This document shows positions 15,559 through 30,456 of a DNA stretch of 64,000 nucleotides, in pieces. The position numbers were made by a program, and so were the translations under genes. A model generated the notes under the pieces. The model did not search any database, was not told the origin of the DNA, and saw only the letters and a list, made by a program, of their open reading frames with translations. The stretch is taken from the NCBI GenBank assembly GCA_036785375.1, contig JAWMAR010000350.1:2418001-2482000 (forward strand), read 5' to 3'. The stretch's first letter is position 1; every line of letters begins with the position of its first letter. The stretch comes from Leucoraja ocellata. Taxonomy: Eukaryota.

Positions 15559-17111
15559 TTCAAGAAGGAACTGCAGATGCTGGAAAATCGAAGGTACACA
15601 AAAATGCTGGAGAAACTCAGCGGGTGCAGCAGCATCTATGGAGCGAAGGAAATAGGTAACGTTTCGGGCCGAACCCCTTCTTCAGACTGATAGGGGGTGG
15701 CGGGGAGAAAGAAGGAAAAAGGAGGAGGAGGAGCCCGAGGGCTGGGAGATGGGAGGAGACAGCCCGAGGGCTGAGGAAGGATTGTTCGACGTTGTTCAAT
15801 ACGTACCAGGGCCCCATCCCCGACCTCTACCTCCGTTACATCGACGACTGCTTTGGGGCCACCTCCTGCACCCACACACAACTGACTGACTTCATCCACT
15901 TCACCACCAACTTCCATCCGGCACTCAAATACACCTGGACTATTTCCAACACTTCCCTACCATTCCTTGACCTCACTATCTCCATCGCAGGTGATAGACT
16001 TCTGACCGACATCTACTATAAACCCACTGACTCCCATGGCTATCTGGACTACACTTCTTCCCACCCTGCTTCCTGTAAGGACTCCATCCCCTACTCCCAA
16101 TTCTTCCGCCTACGCCGCATCTGCTCCCAGGATGAGGCGTTCCACACCAGGGCATCTGAAATGTCCTCATTCTTCAGGGAACGGGGGTTCCCCTCCTCCA
16201 CCATAGATGAGGCTCGCACCAGGGTCTCTTCCATACCCCGCAACACCGCTCTCTCTCCCCATCCCCGCACTCGCAACAAGGGCAGAGCCCCCTAGTCCTC
16301 ACCTTTCACCCCACCAGCCGTCACATACAACCAATAATCCTCCGTCATTTCCGCCACCTCCAACATGATCCCACCACTCGCCACATCTTCCCATCTCCCC
16401 CTATGTCTGCCTTCCGCAAAGACCGTTCCCTCCGCAACTCCCTTGTCAATTCTTCCCTTCCCTCCCGTACCACCCCCTTCCCGGGCATTTCCGTTGTAAC
16501 CGCAAGAAATGCAACACCTGTCCCTTTACCTCCCCCCTCGACTCCATTCAAGGACCCAAGCAGTCGTTCCAGGTGCAACAGAGGTTCACCTGCATCTCCT
16601 CCAACCTCACCTACTGCATCCGTTGCTCTAGATGTCAAATGATAAATGATCTACATCAGTGAGACTAAGCGGAGGTTGGGCGATCACTTCGCTGAACACC
16701 TCCGCTCAGTCCGCAATAACCTACCTGAACTCCCGGTGGCTCAGCACTTCAACTCCCCCTCCCATTCCCAATCCGATCTTTCTGTCCTGGGTCTCCTCCA
16801 TTGCCAAAGTGAGCAACACCAAAATTTGGAGGAACAGCACCTCATATTTTGCTTGGGGAGTCTGCATCCTGCGGGCATGAACATTGAATTCTCCCAATTT
16901 TGTTAGCCCTCGCTGTCTCCTCCCCTTCCTCAGCCCTCGGGCTGTCTCCTCCCATCCCCCAGCCCTCGGGCTCCTCCTCCTCCTTTATCCTTCCTTCTCC
17001 CCACCACCCCCTATCAGTCTGAAGAAGGGTTTCGGCCCGAAACGTTACCTATTTCCTTCGCTCCATAGATGCTGCTGCACCCGCTGAGTTTCTCCTGCAT
17101 TTTTGTGTACC
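15559..17111 (+). mobile_element. 5'-truncated Penelope-like element (Neptune type): RT C-half, Cys-rich linker, GIY-YIG endonuclease, 3' pLTR and inverted 5' pLTR
   Basis: YLRYIDD RT motif (ORF 15792-16295); CNRKKCNTC linker at about 16495-16521; YISETKRRLGDHFAEH GIY-YIG remnant (ORF 16646-16906). Inverted pLTR 15559-15780 matches 16900-17111. TSD TTACATT(A/G)CATATTG at 15544-15558 and 17112-17126. Frameshifts present. Confidence 0.95.
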
Positions 17112-17879
17112 TTACATTGCATATTGCTTTTGTTATATACCCTTCATTCTCTGTAGTTTTAAGACAACAGACATTCAGTGCTGCTCCAACCATTTGCTCT
17201 GGAGAATACTGCGGCTCCCATGGATTGGAATGTGCTGACAGCAGAAGGTCATCATCTAGTGTAAAAGATTCAGTTTGTGAATGTACCTTCACTTTACACA
17301 CAGCTCGTGCATCCGATTGCTGTGGTTGGCTTTGTTTCCTCCATATTCAGTTGAGGAAGTTCAAGGGAAGTGAATGAATAGCTGAAGTTTATATCACCAT
17401 TTTTAGTTTGCCTTGAGTCATCTGTTTTAGTACAGCACTCCTTGAGGTTGAGGGCTTTGATCAACTGCTTGCAACCCTTTGTGGTCAGAGAATCCAACCT
17501 CCAAAGAAAATACTTTCTGGATTGCTAGAAAAGATAAAGATCAGTGGGAGTCACTGTGAGTTTGTGGCAATGATCCCACCAGCAGCATGTAGGAAGTGAG
17601 TCGGGGGATGGCTAACACATATGGCCATTTATCTATCACAACTCAGATGCAGAATGTAGATGTGTAACAGTGATTTCCAAAACACAGGACAACAATGGCT
17701 ACATCTGTTTGCCAAAAATCATGAAGTTTGTGCTCAAGATCACAACCTATTAGCCAGACCTCTAGCTGGAAGTGAAGGAAGAATTACAAATTCCTTTGTC
17801 CCTGAGACCCGTCCTGATGGAATGTAACTCTTGCTGAGTCACAGCAATCAGGCATTGGAGCCAGATGATGGCCAGTCCA

Positions 17880-19365: not shown

Positions 19366-20717
19366 TCTTCAGGGCCAAGCAAACTCGAGAAATGAGAATA
19401 AGAGGAAGGAAGGGACAATTGCCTTGCCGACTTTGTATGTTTAGTTATTGGAATTATTCTCTGATTTCATCTTGATTTAATAGGTTTGTGTCACACAATG
19501 AAACTAATTGATTTTATGTGTAAGATAAAATTCTACATATGATGTGTAGCGGTGTTTGAATGCAAGAATTGCCACAATGTCCTCATGCACAAACACGTTT
19601 TTTAAAAACAGATACAATTAAAATTCTCTGAACTTTCTGAAACAAACATAATGAAAAGTCGCTGTTTAATGTGAAGCCATTTTTTGGACACATTCATATA
19701 AAAAATAATGACATGTTTGTGCCGAGTGCAGAATTAGCTTCACAACTTCTGTTACTCTAGCTTTATTGGACTCTTTCTCTTTCATTACCTCCTCTTTCTG
19801 CACAGCTCTCACACACATTCCTGTTATCTCTTTTTCTGTCTCTAGATTTTCTCTGACACCATATCTCTCTTTGTCTCAAAGCTTTCCTCTCTTTTCTTAT
19901 TTGTTACTCTATCTGTCTGCCCATCTATCTTTCTCTTTCACACAATGAAAAAAGGATTTATTTTAAATAAGCCTCTATGGCCTGGTCATGGTCCAGTCAG
20001 AGTTGCTATGGGAACACCTACGTGGATTTTCCAGCAATTCTGCACACATACACAAAATGTCAAGGTGTCTGATTTCATTCTTGGATAGCTCTAACAGCCG
20101 GACAAGTGTCTGCTAAAACTGAGCCATCTAGCGATGTGATTTGTATTATTTCTTTCTGTTTTTCTAGGTGGGGACATTTTCTGAACTTGTTGCCTCAGTC
20201 CTGTCACAGTGACCAAAATGCTTCAGAAATTAACAAGCTGCTTTTCACCCCAGATGTCTGTGCTATCCACTTGCTTTGAAAATATTTAAACTATTTGCAA
20301 TAAATTCACCCATTGTACTCTCCTCATACTGATCTATCTTTTAGTTTATTACTTTACCCAGTATGGATTTTTTTTTTAATGTTCACATTCCTTCCCTGAA
20401 TGTGGGCAAGCCTGTCATTTATTGGCTTTTTCTAATTGCCCTTGATGAAGTGGTGATGAGCCTTGTTTTTGAAACACTGCAGTCTTGATGACAAACCCCC
20501 CATTGGATTATAATCCGTAAACTGGATGTTTGAGTCACTGTGACAGTGCAAAATTTACTCAAATTAGGATGTTATGTAACTTTGAAGTTGTGGTGTTCCC
20601 AAGTGTCTGCTGCCATTGTCCTTCTTGATGGAGGTTATGACTTTGGAATGTGCAGTTAAAGAACTATTAACTAGTCCATTCGTTGTGAGATTTTACTTCG
20701 GAGTCACGTGAGTGACT

Positions 20718-20752
20718 ACGTGAAGAACCCACCCAGCGCGCAGGCGCGGCAT
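20718..20752 (+). repeat. DIRS left ITR core (pairs with 25387-25421)
   Basis: ACGTGAAGAACCCACCCAGCGCGCAGGCGCGGCAT is the exact reverse complement of 25387-25421. Confidence 0.95.
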
Positions 20753-20871
20753 TTACGTCAGCAGTGCAACAGCGGCAGCAGCTGGAGCCAGGCTCTCCAG
20801 CGGCAGCATAAAGACAAGACCTCAGGTAAGTGCCTTTTTTGTGTTACAGAGTCGCTCAACGGTGGAGAATT

Positions 20872-22092
20872 ATGGCCACTCGAAAGCGACCAGCCAGAAG
20901 GACTGCCTGCCCAACTCCACCCGAGGAGGGGTCCATAGCTGGGCGGCAGCCACTCGTAGCGGAGGAGCCATTTCAACGCTCCCGCTCACCCGACACCGAG
21001 CCGCCCCCTGTGCTGCCGATATCGACGCCCCGCACAGGGAGGAAGGCTACTCACAAAACCGACCGGCCGGTGTCCTCCGATTCATCGGAGGAACGGGAAC
21101 GCTCTCCACCACCGAAACGGGGAGACGCCCGCATCAGCTGCATGAGGCAGCTCCTGGAACAAATGATCGATGAGGAGATGCAGGCTAGGCATCTCCCAGG
21201 AGGGCGGGCTTTGGCCTCCTCCTTACCATCACCACACCCTTCTGTACCCTCTCTGTTCGAGGGCAGTAAGGGAGGCCAGGACTGGGCTGGCCTATCCCAA
21301 GGGCAGGCGGACGACAACATCAGTATGCCGGGCGTGCTAGAAGAGCTACTGGGTGTAGTGGGTCGGTACGCACCGCCCCCAACGACCGGGATGGTACTAC
21401 CACCTAGAATGGCGGCCAACATTAATAGGCTTTCCAACAAGCCGCTGCAGGACAAGGTCGTCCAGCAGGCCCTTGATACGTACACAGCGCCAGAGAATTG
21501 CGAGGCGCTGCGGGTGAAAACGGTCAACGGGCAGATATGGAACCAGCTGGGGCAGCAGATCAGGGCTCAGGAAGTAAAAATGCAGCGGGTCCTGAAGCTC
21601 CACTCAGCAGCCATCACCGCCTTTGCTCGGTCCGTCGGGAACGAAGAGCTATCCATACCCCAGCAGGATGCACTGGCGTTGATGTGCAACACCACGTACG
21701 AGCTCAACAGCCTACGGCGGGATAACATCAGGCCTGCCCTCAATCCGAAATACGCAGGCCTCTGCAAAGCTCCAGCGCCGGAACGAGAGGCGCTGCTATT
21801 TGGTGCAGATTTGGCCAAGAAACTGAAGGAGTTGGAAGAGGCGGCCAAACCGGTAGGCCTCATGAGGGCAGTGCCAGGACCGAGCAGGGTGAAGACACCC
21901 AGTTGGCAGCACGCCTCGGCATCCACCAGCAGGTACCGAGCTGGTGAAAGCCTGGTGACCGCCTCCCACTACCCCCAGAGCTCTTTTTTAGAGCGGGGCC
22001 CAGGGCGGAGCCGTGGGAAGATGCGCCGCCCCACCGCAGCACCAACACGGACAACCTTGGGCCAAACCTATCGAAAACGCCCCCACAAATAA
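20872..22092 (+). CDS. DIRS ORF1, gag-like protein (406 aa from first ATG)
   Basis: Long open frame upstream of RT with DIRS gag-like segments PENCEALRVKTVNGQIW and ELNSLRRDNIRPALNPKYAGLC..LLFGADLAKKLK. The track ORF starts at a GTG; the first ATG is at 20872. Confidence 0.88.
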   Translation: MATRKRPARRTACPTPPEEGSIAGRQPLVAEEPFQRSRSPDTEPPPVLPISTPRTGRKATHKTDRPVSSDSSEERERSPPPKRGDARISCMRQLLEQMIDEEMQARHLPGGRALASSLPSPHPSVPSLFEGSKGGQDWAGLSQGQADDNISMPGVLEELLGVVGRYAPPPTTGMVLPPRMAANINRLSNKPLQDKVVQQALDTYTAPENCEALRVKTVNGQIWNQLGQQIRAQEVKMQRVLKLHSAAITAFARSVGNEELSIPQQDALALMCNTTYELNSLRRDNIRPALNPKYAGLCKAPAPEREALLFGADLAKKLKELEEAAKPVGLMRAVPGPSRVKTPSWQHASASTSRYRAGESLVTASHYPQSSFLERGPGRSRGKMRRPTAAPTRTTLGQTYRKRPHK

Positions 22093-22094
22093 AC

Positions 22095-24029
22095 ATGGAG
22101 GTAGGTGGGTCTGGTTCCTGCCAACATACACAGACAAAGGGTGCTGTATTAACAGGAGGACGTTTGAGGTTCTTCAAGCATGTTTGGTGCTCCCTAACTA
22201 ACAATAAGTTTATACTCAACAGTATCAGTGGATACAAAATTGAATTCAAACCAGGCATAGAACCTCCAGTTCAGCACATGCCCCAAAGGGTATTCCTTCC
22301 CTCAGCATTTGAGAAGGTAGAAGGACAAGCTGAACTAGATAGGCTCGTGGCTAAAGGCATCATAGAAATGACCACACACGAGCCGCACGAATTTGTATCA
22401 AATATTTTTCTCAAATCCAAGAAAGATGGTGGATGTCGCATTATTATTGATTTGACGTCACTTAATCAGTCTGTTGAGTATCAACATTTCAAAATGGAGA
22501 CATTTGTCACTGCCAGACAACTGATCTCCAAGGGATACTACATGGCAAGCATAGATATCAAGGATGCTTACTATTTAGTACCCATTCATAAGGATTATTA
22601 CAAATATCTGAAATTTATCTGGATGGGCCAGCTGTGGCAGTACAGAGCCTTGCCCAATGGTTTAACGACAGCTCCCAGACTATTTACAAAAATTCTCAAA
22701 GTGGCCATGAAAAAATTGAGAGAACAAAAGCATTTAGTTGTGGCCTATCTGGACGATGTTCTCATATTAGGGAGAACAAGGGAACTAGCTGTCGCAGGAG
22801 TTTTAGCCACTAAACAACTCCTTGAAACTTTGGGATTCATCCTACACCCAGATAAATCTATATTGGAGCCTACTACTAACATGGATTACCTAGGCTTCAC
22901 TATTGACACTATCCATATGACTGTTACTCTGCCCAGAGACAAAAAAGTTTCACTCATCGAAGCTTGTAACCATTTAATTGCTACACCGCAACCAAGGATA
23001 CGGCACGTAGCCAGAGTCATTGGCTCTATAGTAGCAGCATTCCCGGCTGCCCAATATGGGCCCTTGCATTATCAAAATTTGCAAAGAGCAAGGAGTCATG
23101 CGCTACGTCTTAATAGGGGGCATTATGACCGCAAAATGGAGTTACCCACTGAAGCCAGATCAGAACTTCAGTGGTGGGTAGATAATATTTGGCACAGTCA
23201 CAGTCCTATCGCCGTCACCAATCCTAACATAACCATTACAACGGATGCCAGTGCTTTAGGCTGGGGAGCTACTAACTCCATAGACAGCACAGGTGGCAGA
23301 TGGACTAACTCAGAGGCATCGCTACTACAAACACTGGGCATTAACTTCTTGGAGATGCTCGCCGCCTTTTATGGGCTAAAAGCATATGCATCTGAAATGC
23401 GGCATGTGCATGTTAGAATTATGATTGACAACACAACGGCGGTATCTTATATCCAGCACATGGGTGGCATAAAATCAGTATCATGCGACAAATTGACTAC
23501 TATAATCTGGCAATGGTGTGTCGAGAGACATATTTGGCTATCAGCTGCCTATTTACCAGGGAAGCTAAATTTAGTGGCGGACACCAGGTCACGAAAATTC
23601 AACGACAACATCGAATGGATGTTGGACCCGAAACTATTTGCTAGAATTGTCAAGCAATATGGTACGCCAGATATAGATTTGTTTGCGTCTAGACTAAATC
23701 ACCAACTACCCATGTATGTGGCTTGGGAACCAGACCCAGAGGCAGCAGCGGTAGATGCCTTCACGCTGGATTGGGGAAATTTCTTTTTCTATGCTTTCCC
23801 TCCCTTCTGCCTCATCAGTCGGGTACTCCAGAAAATTCAGGCAGACTCAGCCTCCGGCATTCTGGTCGTGCCCGACTGGCCTACCCAACCATGGTTCCCA
23901 ATGTTCCACGACATGGTGGTAGAGACACCTATGGTCCTTCACAACCACCCCCAATTATTGACTCACCCGGTAACTGGCATTAGTCATCCATGCCACCAAA
24001 AATTGAACCTCCTGGTTTCCAGATTCTGA
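22095..24029 (+). CDS. DIRS ORF2: reverse transcriptase, RNase H and Dam-like methyltransferase domain (644 aa)
   Basis: GGRL, KKDGGCRIIIDL, DIKDAY, LPNGL and YLDD (22746-22757); RNase H TTDAS..GWG, E, DN..AV, ADTRSR; C-terminal DLFAS..FPPF..P.WP.QPW. Confidence 0.97.
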   Translation: MEVGGSGSCQHTQTKGAVLTGGRLRFFKHVWCSLTNNKFILNSISGYKIEFKPGIEPPVQHMPQRVFLPSAFEKVEGQAELDRLVAKGIIEMTTHEPHEFVSNIFLKSKKDGGCRIIIDLTSLNQSVEYQHFKMETFVTARQLISKGYYMASIDIKDAYYLVPIHKDYYKYLKFIWMGQLWQYRALPNGLTTAPRLFTKILKVAMKKLREQKHLVVAYLDDVLILGRTRELAVAGVLATKQLLETLGFILHPDKSILEPTTNMDYLGFTIDTIHMTVTLPRDKKVSLIEACNHLIATPQPRIRHVARVIGSIVAAFPAAQYGPLHYQNLQRARSHALRLNRGHYDRKMELPTEARSELQWWVDNIWHSHSPIAVTNPNITITTDASALGWGATNSIDSTGGRWTNSEASLLQTLGINFLEMLAAFYGLKAYASEMRHVHVRIMIDNTTAVSYIQHMGGIKSVSCDKLTTIIWQWCVERHIWLSAAYLPGKLNLVADTRSRKFNDNIEWMLDPKLFARIVKQYGTPDIDLFASRLNHQLPMYVAWEPDPEAAAVDAFTLDWGNFFFYAFPPFCLISRVLQKIQADSASGILVVPDWPTQPWFPMFHDMVVETPMVLHNHPQLLTHPVTGISHPCHQKLNLLVSRF

Positions 24030-25000
24030 ACAGACCTTACCGGGGATTGGGGTTATCAGAGAGAACAATCACCACCATGTCGGCATCCCTGCGAGTTTCC
24101 ACCAAGAAACAGTACCTGACCTACATCAGGAAATGGGAACAGTACTGTCTGGAAGCAGGGACATCTTACAAGACGGCTTCGGTCTCGGATGTGCTGGAGT
24201 TCCTGGCCCACCTGCACCATGACCTAAAGATGAGCTACAGTGCCATCAATACAGCTCGGAGCGCCCTGTCCGCATACCTCATGCCCATAGGACAGCATAG
24301 TGTTGGATCCCACCCTCTGGTTATCAAACTCCTTAAAGGGATTTATAACACCAAACCCCCTACACCTAGATACACCCAAGTGTGGGATGTTAGTGTAGTA
24401 TTGACACACCTTCGAGGTTGGCCTCCGGTGGGATCCCTGAGCCTGGAACAGTCCACTTACAAGACCCTTATGCTCATGGCGCTTGTCTCTGCTCAGAGGG
24501 TTCAGTCGCTGCATCAGTTAAGTCTGGACCACATGGTGACCACCCCAGATACCATTACTTTTACCATGCCGGGGTTGGTCAAACAGAGCAGACCAGGTAC
24601 ATCCAACTCCCCGTTGATCTTCCGGGCATACCCTCCAGAACCTAGGCTGTGTGTGGTGACCCACCTTTATCATTACTTAGACACTACCCAAACTCTTAGA
24701 GGGAGAGAAAAAGCCTTATGGGTCAGCCATAAAAAGCCTTTTGGACGGGTTACCAGCCAGACAATATCCAGATGGTTGAAACAGGTCCTTAACATGGCAG
24801 GGATTAACACAGATGTTTTTAAATCCCATTCAACCAGGGCAGCGTCCACCTCAGCGGCGGATCGGATGCAGGTTCCCCTAGACCACATCCTCAGAGCAGC
24901 GGGATGGTCAAGGGAATCGACATTCCAAAAATTCTACAGAAAACCGCTGATGGGAAAGGACGTCTTTGCGGAGAGAATTTTAGAAACCGCAAATTTATAA
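23990..25000 (+). CDS. DIRS ORF3: tyrosine recombinase
   Basis: N-terminal core-binding region (YSAINTARSALS), catalytic R in SAQRVQ, HSTR, GW and Y in FQKFY. The true start may be ATG 24077. Confidence 0.95.
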   Translation: MPPKIEPPGFQILNRPYRGLGLSERTITTMSASLRVSTKKQYLTYIRKWEQYCLEAGTSYKTASVSDVLEFLAHLHHDLKMSYSAINTARSALSAYLMPIGQHSVGSHPLVIKLLKGIYNTKPPTPRYTQVWDVSVVLTHLRGWPPVGSLSLEQSTYKTLMLMALVSAQRVQSLHQLSLDHMVTTPDTITFTMPGLVKQSRPGTSNSPLIFRAYPPEPRLCVVTHLYHYLDTTQTLRGREKALWVSHKKPFGRVTSQTISRWLKQVLNMAGINTDVFKSHSTRAASTSAADRMQVPLDHILRAAGWSRESTFQKFYRKPLMGKDVFAERILETANL

Positions 25001-25159
25001 TTTAAAGCCCAGGGGAGCTATTTTTTGTTGTTGTTAATAAACATTTGTTTTTTAAAACTAACAAACTTGTTGGTCTTTAGATACCACTTCCTCCCTCGAT
25101 GATCTTTCGGCAGTGAGTGATATAACTGTTACATGGTTTGAAATCACAGACCTTTGAAG

Positions 25160-25272
25160 TCTTCACGTAGTCACTCACGTGACTCCGAAGTAAAATAGTA
25201 AGATTAAACGAGTACTTACCAGTACGAAGTTTGATCTGTATTTTATGAGGAGTTACGATGAGGGATTACGTG
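25160..25272. repeat. DIRS internal complementary region (ICR)
   Basis: 25160-25196 is the reverse complement of the left terminus 20690-20726. 25194-25272 is the reverse complement of the right terminus 25417-25495. Confidence 0.96.
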
Positions 25273-25659
25273 CCCTCCGCTCCCACCCTCATTGTATAGA
25301 TCAAACTCGGACTGATGTCTCATTAATCTTTACTATCTTTACTTCAATTTGTGTCTATCTGTGATTCCACACCGCTGCTTGGAAGTATGCCGCGCCTGCG
25401 CGCTGGGTGGGTTCTTCACGTAATCCCTCATCGTAACTCCTCATAAAATACAGATCAAACTTCGTACTGGTAAGTACTCGTTTAATCTTACTATTACTTA
25501 GCTCTATCTGCAGCCTATTGTTTCAGTGTTTAGCATCCTGTGTGTAGCTTTAGTAAACTGCATTACATTTTCAGTGTGGTGCTATCCTCAGCACTCTTTC
25601 CCACACCAGTCATTGAAGCAGAATTGTGCAGTTTTGAGGCTCGTAGATAAAGGTGAATG

Positions 25660-29154: not shown

Positions 29155-29905
29155 TAGTTTTACTTTAATTTAGTTTAGTTTATTGTCACATATACTGAGA
29201 TACAGTGAAAAGCTTTTGTTGCATGCTAACCAGTCAGCGGAAAGACAATACATGATTACAATCGAGCCATTCACAGCATACATATATATGATAAAGGAAA
29301 TAACGTTTAGTGCAAGATAAAGCCAGTAAAGTCTGATCAAAGATAGTCTGAGGATCTCAGATGAGGTAGATAGCAGTTCAGGGCTGCTCCCTAGTTGTGG
29401 TAGGATGGTTCAGTTGCCTGATAACAGCTGGGAAGAAACTGTTCTTGAATCTGGAGGTGTGCGTTTTCACACTTTTATACCTTTTGCCCGATGGGAGAGG
29501 GGAGAAGTGTGTGGCCAGGGTCACATGCTTCTTTGATTATGCTGCTGGCTTTGCTGAGGCAGTGCGTGGTCTAAATGGAGTCAATGGAAGGGAAGTTGGT
29601 TTGTGAGATGGTCTAGGTCGTGCCCACAATTCTCTGTAATTTCCTGCAGTCTAATGCCCCTGTCCCACTTGGGAAACCTGAACGGAAACCTCTGGAGACT
29701 TTGCGCCCCATCCAAGGTTTCCGTACGGTTCCCGGAGGTTGCAGGTAGTGGAAGCAGGTAAGGGAGACCGACAAAAACCTCCGGGAACCGCATGGAAACC
29801 TTTGGTAGGGCCCAAAGTCTCCAGAGGTTTCCGTTCAGGTTTCCTAAGTGGGACAGGGGCATTAGAAGGAGCTGTTTCCAAACCAAGCTGTGATGCATCG
29901 CAATG
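29155..29905 (-). mobile_element. Rex1/Babar-type LINE 3' fragment hosting a MITE
   Basis: (TTTAG)n tail, TTTATTGTCAC and AGCTGGGAAGAAACTGTTC (SFFPAVI on minus). Confidence 0.75.
29655..29861. mobile_element. Palindromic MITE, PIF/Harbinger-like
   Basis: About 85-bp near-perfect inverted arms starting TGCCCCTGTCCCACT; TAA and TTA flanks, consistent with a 3-bp TWA target. Confidence 0.85.
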
Positions 29906-30456
29906 TAACTCTCCTTCGTGCTCGAGAGAAGTTCCCGCATACTCACGGCCTCAGTTTGGTCAAGGAGTATTTTTTATCATGCTGAAAAATTGTCCGCGAG
30001 TAAACATTGGTCGGCATGGAAAAAAATCAATTTTTTTTTACTTGAAGGTTAGTCGAAGTGGGTCATAGTAGGTCGGCATTTTATTCGTAGGTAATCAAAG
30101 GCAATCGAAGGTAGTCGACGGTAATCGAAGGCAGTCAAAGGTAGTCGTAGATCGTGTTAGTATAGTCGAAGGTGGTCGTCTTCACTCTCCACTATTCGGT
30201 GTCTGATTTTCCAGAGAGCATCGGCGAGTAAATCGTAGATAGTCGAAGCAAGTCTTCAACATAGTCAAAGGAGATCGAAGGAGGTCTTCTACATGGTCGT
30301 AGGAAGTCTTCAACATATTCGTGGGAGGTTCTCTACATAGTTGAAGGAGGTCATAGGAGGTGTTCTATTTCGGCGATACAAGAGCATGACACTCTCCTTG
30401 ACTCTCCTAAACTCTTCTAAACTCGCAAATTAAGTCCCCGCAGTGGGACAGGCCCT
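29906..30456. mobile_element. Related Harbinger-like non-autonomous element with one TIR left
   Basis: Ends in AGTGGGACAGGCCCT-TAA, the same TIR core as the MITE. Internal degenerate (GGTAGTCGAA)n array at about 30050-30350. Confidence 0.65.

Follow-up and report, generated by a model that had tools for sequence, protein, structure and literature searches.

A putative -1 ribosomal frameshift site fusing Gag to reverse transcriptase in a DIRS1-like retrotransposon of the skate Leucoraja ocellata

The reverse transcriptase (RT) and recombinase ORFs of DIRS retrotransposons often have no start codon, and the literature that we examined gives no answer to the question of how they are expressed. 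This question is raised by an element in a window of 64,000 nucleotides from Leucoraja ocellata (contig JAWMAR010000350.1 of assembly GCA_036785375.1, positions 2,418,001 to 2,482,000 of the forward strand; all positions below are counted from the first letter of the window). Based on comparisons with related loci, we propose that ribosomes undergo programmed -1 frameshifting at the heptamer 21984-21990, by which Gag is fused to RT, a reading to which we assign a probability of roughly 85%.

The element and its gag-RT junction

The features of the element are collected in Table 1. Gag, RT/RNase H and tyrosine recombinase ORFs are all present, and the AAT junction in the internal complementary region (ICR) is complementary to the ATT trinucleotides at the ends, as in DIRS1-like elements. 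Positions 20709-20752 are 95% complementary to 25387-25430, and positions 25417-25495 are 100% complementary to 25194-25272. The left boundary of the element is also visible in RNA reads from other copies, which lose their alignment before 20689/20690. No Pfam match was obtained for Gag, nor for a methyltransferase-like domain on the RT protein of the window element; PF05869 was matched on several full-length RT relatives. The RNase H and methyltransferase-like (MT) parts of the RT ORF are assigned here, with due reservation, from the DIRS1 layout.

Table 1. Positions of the DIRS1-like element and its observed and predicted features within the window
Feature	Positions	Strand	Remarks
Whole DIRS1-like retrotransposon, ATT...ATT ends	20690..25495	+	Both ends match the ICR
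Left terminus (inverted terminal repeat)	20690..20752	+	Matches left ICR
Leader splice-donor consensus CAG/GTAAGT (20826/20827), then 23 nt on a pyrimidine tract and CAG	20824..20849	+	
gag ORF, 406 aa	20872..22092	+	ATG 20872; 1,818 relatives by profile search
gag/RT overlap, RT in -1 frame	21948..22092	+	ORF phases
RT/RNase H/methyltransferase-like ORF, 693 codons stop to stop	21948..24029	+	PF00078, E 6.8e-19
Putative slippery heptamer T TTT TTA, gag codons 372-373 (F, L)	21984..21990	+	gag codons TCT TTT TTA GAG
Putative trans-frame linker (-1 frame), 37 codons, ending at the predicted donor	21990..22100	+	Sequence variable across families
G+C-rich tract, candidate stimulator	21991..22045	+	76% G+C
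Predicted splice donor GAG/GTAGGT (22100/22101), phase 0 in RT frame	22098..22106	+	8 nt past gag stop
Tyrosine recombinase ORF	23984..25000	+	PF00589 above cut-off; SAM-like domain
Predicted splice acceptor ending TTTCCAG (24022/24023), phase 0 in recombinase frame	24006..24022	+	
Internal complementary region (ICR)	25160..25272	+	Left and right parts overlap on AAT junction 25194-25196
Right terminus with right extension	25387..25495	+	

The element is intact and has about 1,000 near copies in the genome. The flanks of the slip site were matched exactly at 1,014 places, with TTTTTTA in all of the first 100 listed. The best 40 of 1,548 candidates of its own family are 99-100% identical, and on sequence identity this family is young. 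When RT alone was used as a protein query against the same genome, matches were only to the young family. The nearest named Gag belongs to the little skate; at the 90% level it clusters with a protein whose identity to the window Gag is 89%. Named protein relatives come from urchin, brittle star, corals and bivalves, and a search of viral contigs for relatives of the element found none.

The first-pass annotation of the window had described a T TTT TTA in phase with gag, an RT in the -1 frame and 35 codons from the site to an RT ATG, and all of these coordinates check. The heptamer at 21984-21990 is divided by the gag frame as X XXY YYZ, and the -1 frame is open from just after TGA 21945-21947, with 35 RT-frame codons between 21990 and ATG 22095. 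No other X XXY YYZ (Z = A, C or T) occurs in any phase within 20660-22610. A heptamer in a single element is weak evidence when taken alone, as 30 of 389 equally long control windows further upstream in gag hold one in phase.

The start of the RT ATG frame suggests a different explanation. ATG 22095 stands 2 nt past the gag stop (TAA-AC-ATG) in a strong context, with A at -3 and G at +4, and stop and ATG are also 2 nt apart in a second family of the skate genome. ORF2 of LINE-1 is made by reinitiation after an upstream stop, and this close spacing would suit reinitiation after the gag stop as the source of RT, the heptamer being incidental. Such a route leaves the 35 open upstream codons and the heptamer unexplained, however. 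Of 18 sister loci, five have ATA and one has CTG at the position of ATG 22095, and 27 of 45 diverged families (see below) lack an RT-frame ATG upstream of the RT core motif. We consider reinitiation very unlikely indeed, and ATG 22095 is probably not the start of RT.

Conservation of the heptamer and its phase

We compared the junction with other DIRS loci in the same genome. Twenty loci were chosen for variety among 96 recombinase matches, and the gag-RT junction was visible in 18. T TTT TTA stands in gag phase in 15 of the 18, with gag 33-55% identical. The remaining three loci belong to one family of old copies with indels, with no heptamer and with Gag apparently running in frame into RT. 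In the second family mentioned above (Gag 52% identical), CCT TTT TTA GG was found in 25/30 loci; one T was lost in two of the other five, and three had no match.

For a wider sample, an alignment of 109 RT relatives was used to fetch 80 metagenome loci, the best among 438, and the full set of 20 genome-contig loci. The latter are assigned to bacterial or archaeal bins and are presumably host DNA. Together with the window element and one sister locus, the collection comprised 102 loci, and the RT start was present in 90. These loci formed 68 clusters at 80% identity, five without a Gag match, and 63 families were analyzed. They represent one clade of animal DIRS1 elements, and it is for this clade that the claim is made. 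The gag frame was anchored in the gag core for all junction counts. RT overlaps gag in the -1 frame in 45 of the 63 families; 11 are fused, 4 are broken, RT is in +1 in 2, and the last one contains an in-frame stop.

A strict heptamer was found in gag phase in 36 of the 45 families with a -1 overlap, versus 10 and 3 in the other two phases. When G was allowed at the last position, the numbers rose to 42/45 in gag phase versus 14 and 3; even then, 3/45 families had no heptamer in the overlap. Redrawing synonymous codons (300 draws) gave 13.4 +/- 2.8 families with a maximum of 21, versus 36 observed. By these counts, the slip site and its phase are conserved beyond protein constraint.

The heptamer itself is not constant. 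Among the 42 families with a site, TTTTTTA occurs in 17, AAAAAAC in 12, TTTTTTG in 6, GGGTTTT in 3, and TTTTTTT, TTTTTTC, TTTAAAC and CCCAAAC in one each (for families with several heptamers, the type was picked by a fixed preference order). In a tree of 59 families, with four omitted for stops, the heptamer types are interleaved, and well-supported branches require at least six AAAAAAC changes, including one in a sister pair within the clade of the window element.

The first-pass annotation had pointed to sister families as the place to look for the heptamer and the open -1 frame, and both are kept there, in 15/18 loci of the same genome and in 36 to 42 of the 45 diverged families. Its suggestion that the element makes a Gag-Pol fusion by programmed frameshifting is likewise backed by the 36 in-phase families, compared to a null of at most 21, and by the exchanges of heptamer type.

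One may ask whether the bases are kept for the sake of the Gag protein, with the heptamer as a by-product of a conserved F-L-G motif. F-L is indeed found within the last 75 residues of 87/102 Gag relatives, and 4 of the 11 fused families keep TTTTTTA. Two of these four may be indel copies, and two have a donor-like GT directly after the motif (scored by eye). The synonymous redraw preserves the protein, however, and does not come near the observed count; K-N (A AAA AAC) stands in the place of F-L in 12 families; and 7/11 fused families have lost both the F-L motif and the junction heptamer (again scored by eye). On this comparative evidence, the protein-motif explanation appears to be largely refuted already, and we regard it as exceedingly unlikely.

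Slippage could also be a property of RNA polymerase rather than of the ribosome, with a fraction of in-frame gag-pol transcripts arising on the T6 or A6 run. Most sites contain a six-base run, and single-base losses in the run were seen in 2/60 and 2/30 genomic copies. A polymerase does not require codon phase, however, and the GGGTTTT and TTTAAAC sites are without a six-base run, so that this explanation, too, is hardly credible.

Finally, TTTTTTAG might be a splice acceptor, with the leader donor 20826/20827 joined to 21992, gag removed, and RT translated from ATG 22095 in its strong context. The leader donor is perfect and is retained in 55/60 loci of the own family; a CAG/GTAAG donor also lies 130-160 nt from the left end in 5/8 sister loci. 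In all 15 loci of the same genome that have the site, the next base is G, which gives AG. Among the diverged families, by contrast, AG is offered at the site in only 14/42, and 12 have AAAAAAC. An acceptor requires no gag phase, yet 36 heptamers are in gag phase versus 10 and 3. Moreover, the first ATG past 21992 is in the gag frame (22021), and the RT ATG is absent in sister families. The use of the site as a splice acceptor only, which the first-pass annotation had raised against its own reading, thus fails as a general account, and we consider it very unlikely for the window element.

Together, the conservation, the exchanges of heptamer type, the few AGs and the missing RT ATGs argue for ribosomal slipping, and against a splice acceptor, reinitiation, a protein motif or polymerase slippage.

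The downstream tract and a predicted splice to the recombinase

The usual spacer between a slippery heptamer and a stimulatory structure is 5-9 nt. Complementary blocks in the G+C-rich tract of the window element (GGGCGG with CCGCCC, GTGGG with CCCAC) had been proposed earlier as such a structure. The blocks are present where they were placed, but they share 22030-22031, and the 12 nt that separate them from the heptamer are too long a distance. They are not kept in sister families, and the 55-nt tract does not fold better than shuffled sequences (z +0.38; 126/200 shuffles as good). The pairing of these blocks as the stimulator is not supported.

A scan with a crude score found no H-type pseudoknot at the window site, and found one in 8 of the 42 families. 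The 50 nt 3' of the site fold slightly more strongly than those 5' of it (42 families, mean z -0.94 versus -0.04, p 0.003), and z was below -2 for 7 families downstream versus 3 upstream. For ten skate-genome loci, we obtained a weak consensus hairpin of 8 pairs with 88% of cells paired, the covariation of which was not significant (82/500 shuffles as good). A weak hairpin is our best guess for the stimulator.

A predicted splice donor adjoins ATG 22095 and lies 6 nt into the ATG-started RT frame. Phase-0 donor motifs occur in the RT-frame linker of 33/57 families versus 8/452 control windows inside RT, for a set of motifs that was picked after inspection of the data. On the acceptor side, 24023 is the first position with recombinase homology; TTTCCAG stands immediately before it, and the first later ATG comes only at 24077. 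At the place of this acceptor, YAG is found in 17/19 loci of the same genome. The predicted donor and acceptor thus show both matching phase and conservation. Since both sites are in phase 0, removal of the 1,922 nt between them (22101-24022) would join linker and recombinase in frame.

In the diverged families, acceptor and recombinase frame covary. An AG in the RT motif FPPF-x goes together with a recombinase frame that is open at least 60 codons back (40 families), whereas in most families with no AG in FPPF-x this frame is closed, usually with a phase-0 AG further on (14 families). There were 4 and 1 exceptions (p 3e-9, with families that are not independent), and 3 of the 62 families in this set had no match to the FPPF-x motif. 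The serine in FPPF-x is encoded by AGY in 41/42 cases, versus 578/2,214 (26%) elsewhere in RT.

Some RefSeq gene models, which are predictions and not RNA evidence, follow similar paths. The Diadema models P0210 and P0304 join the -1 linker to the recombinase at the predicted donor, in the Amphiura model P0308 the joint is between Gag and the recombinase frame, at the upstream acceptor, and the little-skate isoforms P0127 and P0318 exit Gag at the donor of a fused family.

Eight of 24 listed sequencing runs were aligned, three of them raw RNA and five contig sets presumed to be RNA, from a related organism or unlabelled. Near the junction, coverage is ~4-30 on both strands, and the reads are mostly less than 99% alike and stem from many diverged copies. 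The joint 22100-24023 is absent among the joints listed in these eight low-depth runs, with 4 joints in one set of alignments and at least 15 in the other; so is the joint 20826-21992, which counts weakly against the acceptor explanation of the slip site. In the genome, intron-less copies gave 0 matches with two junction patterns, versus 428 for the unspliced donor. We treat the missing joints and the missing intron-less copies as weak negatives. Judged by its sequence, the combination of a conserved phase-0 donor and a covarying acceptor would likely serve to splice out pol and to produce a Gag-recombinase.

In the mechanism that we propose, most ribosomes would complete the 406-aa Gag, ending at 22090. 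A smaller share, slipping at F372-L373, would continue through the 37-codon linker into RT/RNase H/MT, for a product of ~1,050 aa in all. On RNAs with 22101-24022 spliced out, the same slip would, with good probability, give a Gag-linker-recombinase of ~735 aa. In this way, RT and recombinase alike would be made in Gag-tethered form, at a low fixed ratio. For the large animal DIRS1 clade, we somewhat favor a model in which one -1 cassette is the shared gateway to both enzymes, with unspliced RNA giving Gag-RT and RNA without pol giving Gag-recombinase; lineages would freely swap heptamers or turn to in-frame fusion, and would keep the donor.

Known retroelements and the expression of DIRS enzymes

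The gag-pol frameshift of HIV-1 uses U UUU UUA together with a stem-loop, according to the parts of PMC4373837 consulted. The window element has the same heptamer in the same phase, with pol likewise in the -1 frame and a short overlap. The two differ in that HIV-1 has a stem-loop, whereas the DIRS element is without a demonstrated stable one, and in that the DIRS linker carries a predicted splice donor. In addition, DIRS elements are described in the excerpts consulted as encoding no protease, so that a Gag fusion would not cleave itself, in contrast to HIV-1.

Within the DIRS order, the window element agrees with the DIRS1 definition in PMC3266345 and with the mollusc-type rows of its Table 3, as far as that source was available. 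The table includes AcaDIRS1/2 and LgDIRS1/3 among DIRS1-like elements with short inverted terminal repeats of the ATT/AAT type. These share with the window element the Gag, RT/RNase H/MT and recombinase ORFs, as well as the inverted termini, ICR, ATT ends, AAT junction, right extension, short RT/recombinase overlap and length of 4.8 kb. The available passages on DIRS1-like elements in the same paper describe ORF overlaps and mention neither a gag-pol slip site nor a splice.

In many animal LTR retrotransposons, Ty3/gypsy elements among them, pol is in the -1 frame and classical heptamers are found at the overlap (Gao et al., 2003, as cited in the accessible part of PMC5009743). As in the DIRS families, -1 overlaps and single-ORF gag-pol are mixed among relatives, and the same part of PMC5009743 does not mention DIRS. 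The Ty3/gypsy integrase lies inside Pol, whereas the DIRS recombinase is a third ORF, predicted here to be reached by splicing out pol.

For Ngaro-like elements, a frameshift from RT/RH to recombinase was suggested by Poulter and Butler (2015), as quoted in a portion of PMC13003380. This proposal likewise concerns the DIRS order, but places the shift at the RT-recombinase junction, whereas the slip site of the window element is at the gag-RT junction and its recombinase is apparently reached by a splice. In the sources as consulted, the Ngaro suggestion is the only frameshifting proposal that we found for the DIRS order. We found no literature report of gag-pol frameshifting or of pol splicing for DIRS1; older reviews or Repbase entries may mention them. 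The consulted portions of PMC3266345, PMC3783388, PMC7192593, PMC13003380, PMC6681497, PMC9210276, PMC4157794, PMC12440569 and bioRxiv 10.64898/2026.05.21.726589 make no such claim for DIRS1.

The model accounts for odd Gag-recombinase gene annotations on DIRS repeats, and it predicts Gag-tethered enzymes that would enter a particle-like assembly without a protease. It names the exact bases for testing and supplies dozens of natural animal frameshift cassettes. If true, it would extend -1 frameshifting to another retroelement order, and with the shared gateway an entire retrotransposon order would have a plan of expression that is as yet undescribed.

Leader signals and further repeats in the window

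Immediately 5' of the gag ATG, the leader of the window element carries a perfect splice donor followed 23 nt on by an acceptor-like tract, a spacing that is too short for a single intron. The same donor/acceptor-like pair is also found in sister families, in one of them with a spacing of 28 nt. Another donor consensus lies within the left terminus.

Splice-like signals of the leader and left terminus, and further repeats, in window coordinates
Feature	Position	Detail
Leader donor and acceptor-like tract	20824-20849	
Donor consensus within left terminus	20710/20711	
Further repeats	15586-17118, 29650-29866, 30082-30349	Inverted pair of 195 nt, 1.1 kb apart; hairpin-like inverted pair of 91 nt; tandem arrays of 10 and 22 nt

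Variants of the gag-RT junction

In one DIRS locus (L102), the RT ORF starts directly after the gag stop (near 1743-1745) without a change of frame. Since the nearest family (L103) has a -1 overlap, the same-frame stop is either read through or the mark of a damaged copy. Gag and RT are fused in L153 and L170, with a donor-like GT directly 3' of TTT TTA G (FLGK, FLGE), and the splice layout of these two loci may possibly differ. One DIRS family of the window's own genome (L202, L208, L209) apparently has gag in the RT frame and lacks the heptamer, yet donor and acceptor are the same. The divergent element L189 has another layout: the recombinase frame stays open over 635 upstream codons, RT is in +1 relative to the preceding ORF, and the FPPF acceptor is absent.

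Provenance of loci and incomplete copies

Animal-type DIRS elements (L171-L190) occur in contigs that were binned as bacterial or archaeal genomes, such as Sedimenticola, and these bins are likely contaminated by host DNA. The little-skate gene model P0124, which joins methyltransferase and cytokine-receptor domains to DIRS Gag, is probably an annotation chimera, or possibly a case of exonisation.

For the second family of the skate genome (L061-L090), an RT match beside gag was missing in 24 of the 30 loci, and one member (L072), with a leader about 800 nt longer, breaks off soon after the RT start. These features suggest the existence of non-autonomous subfamilies.
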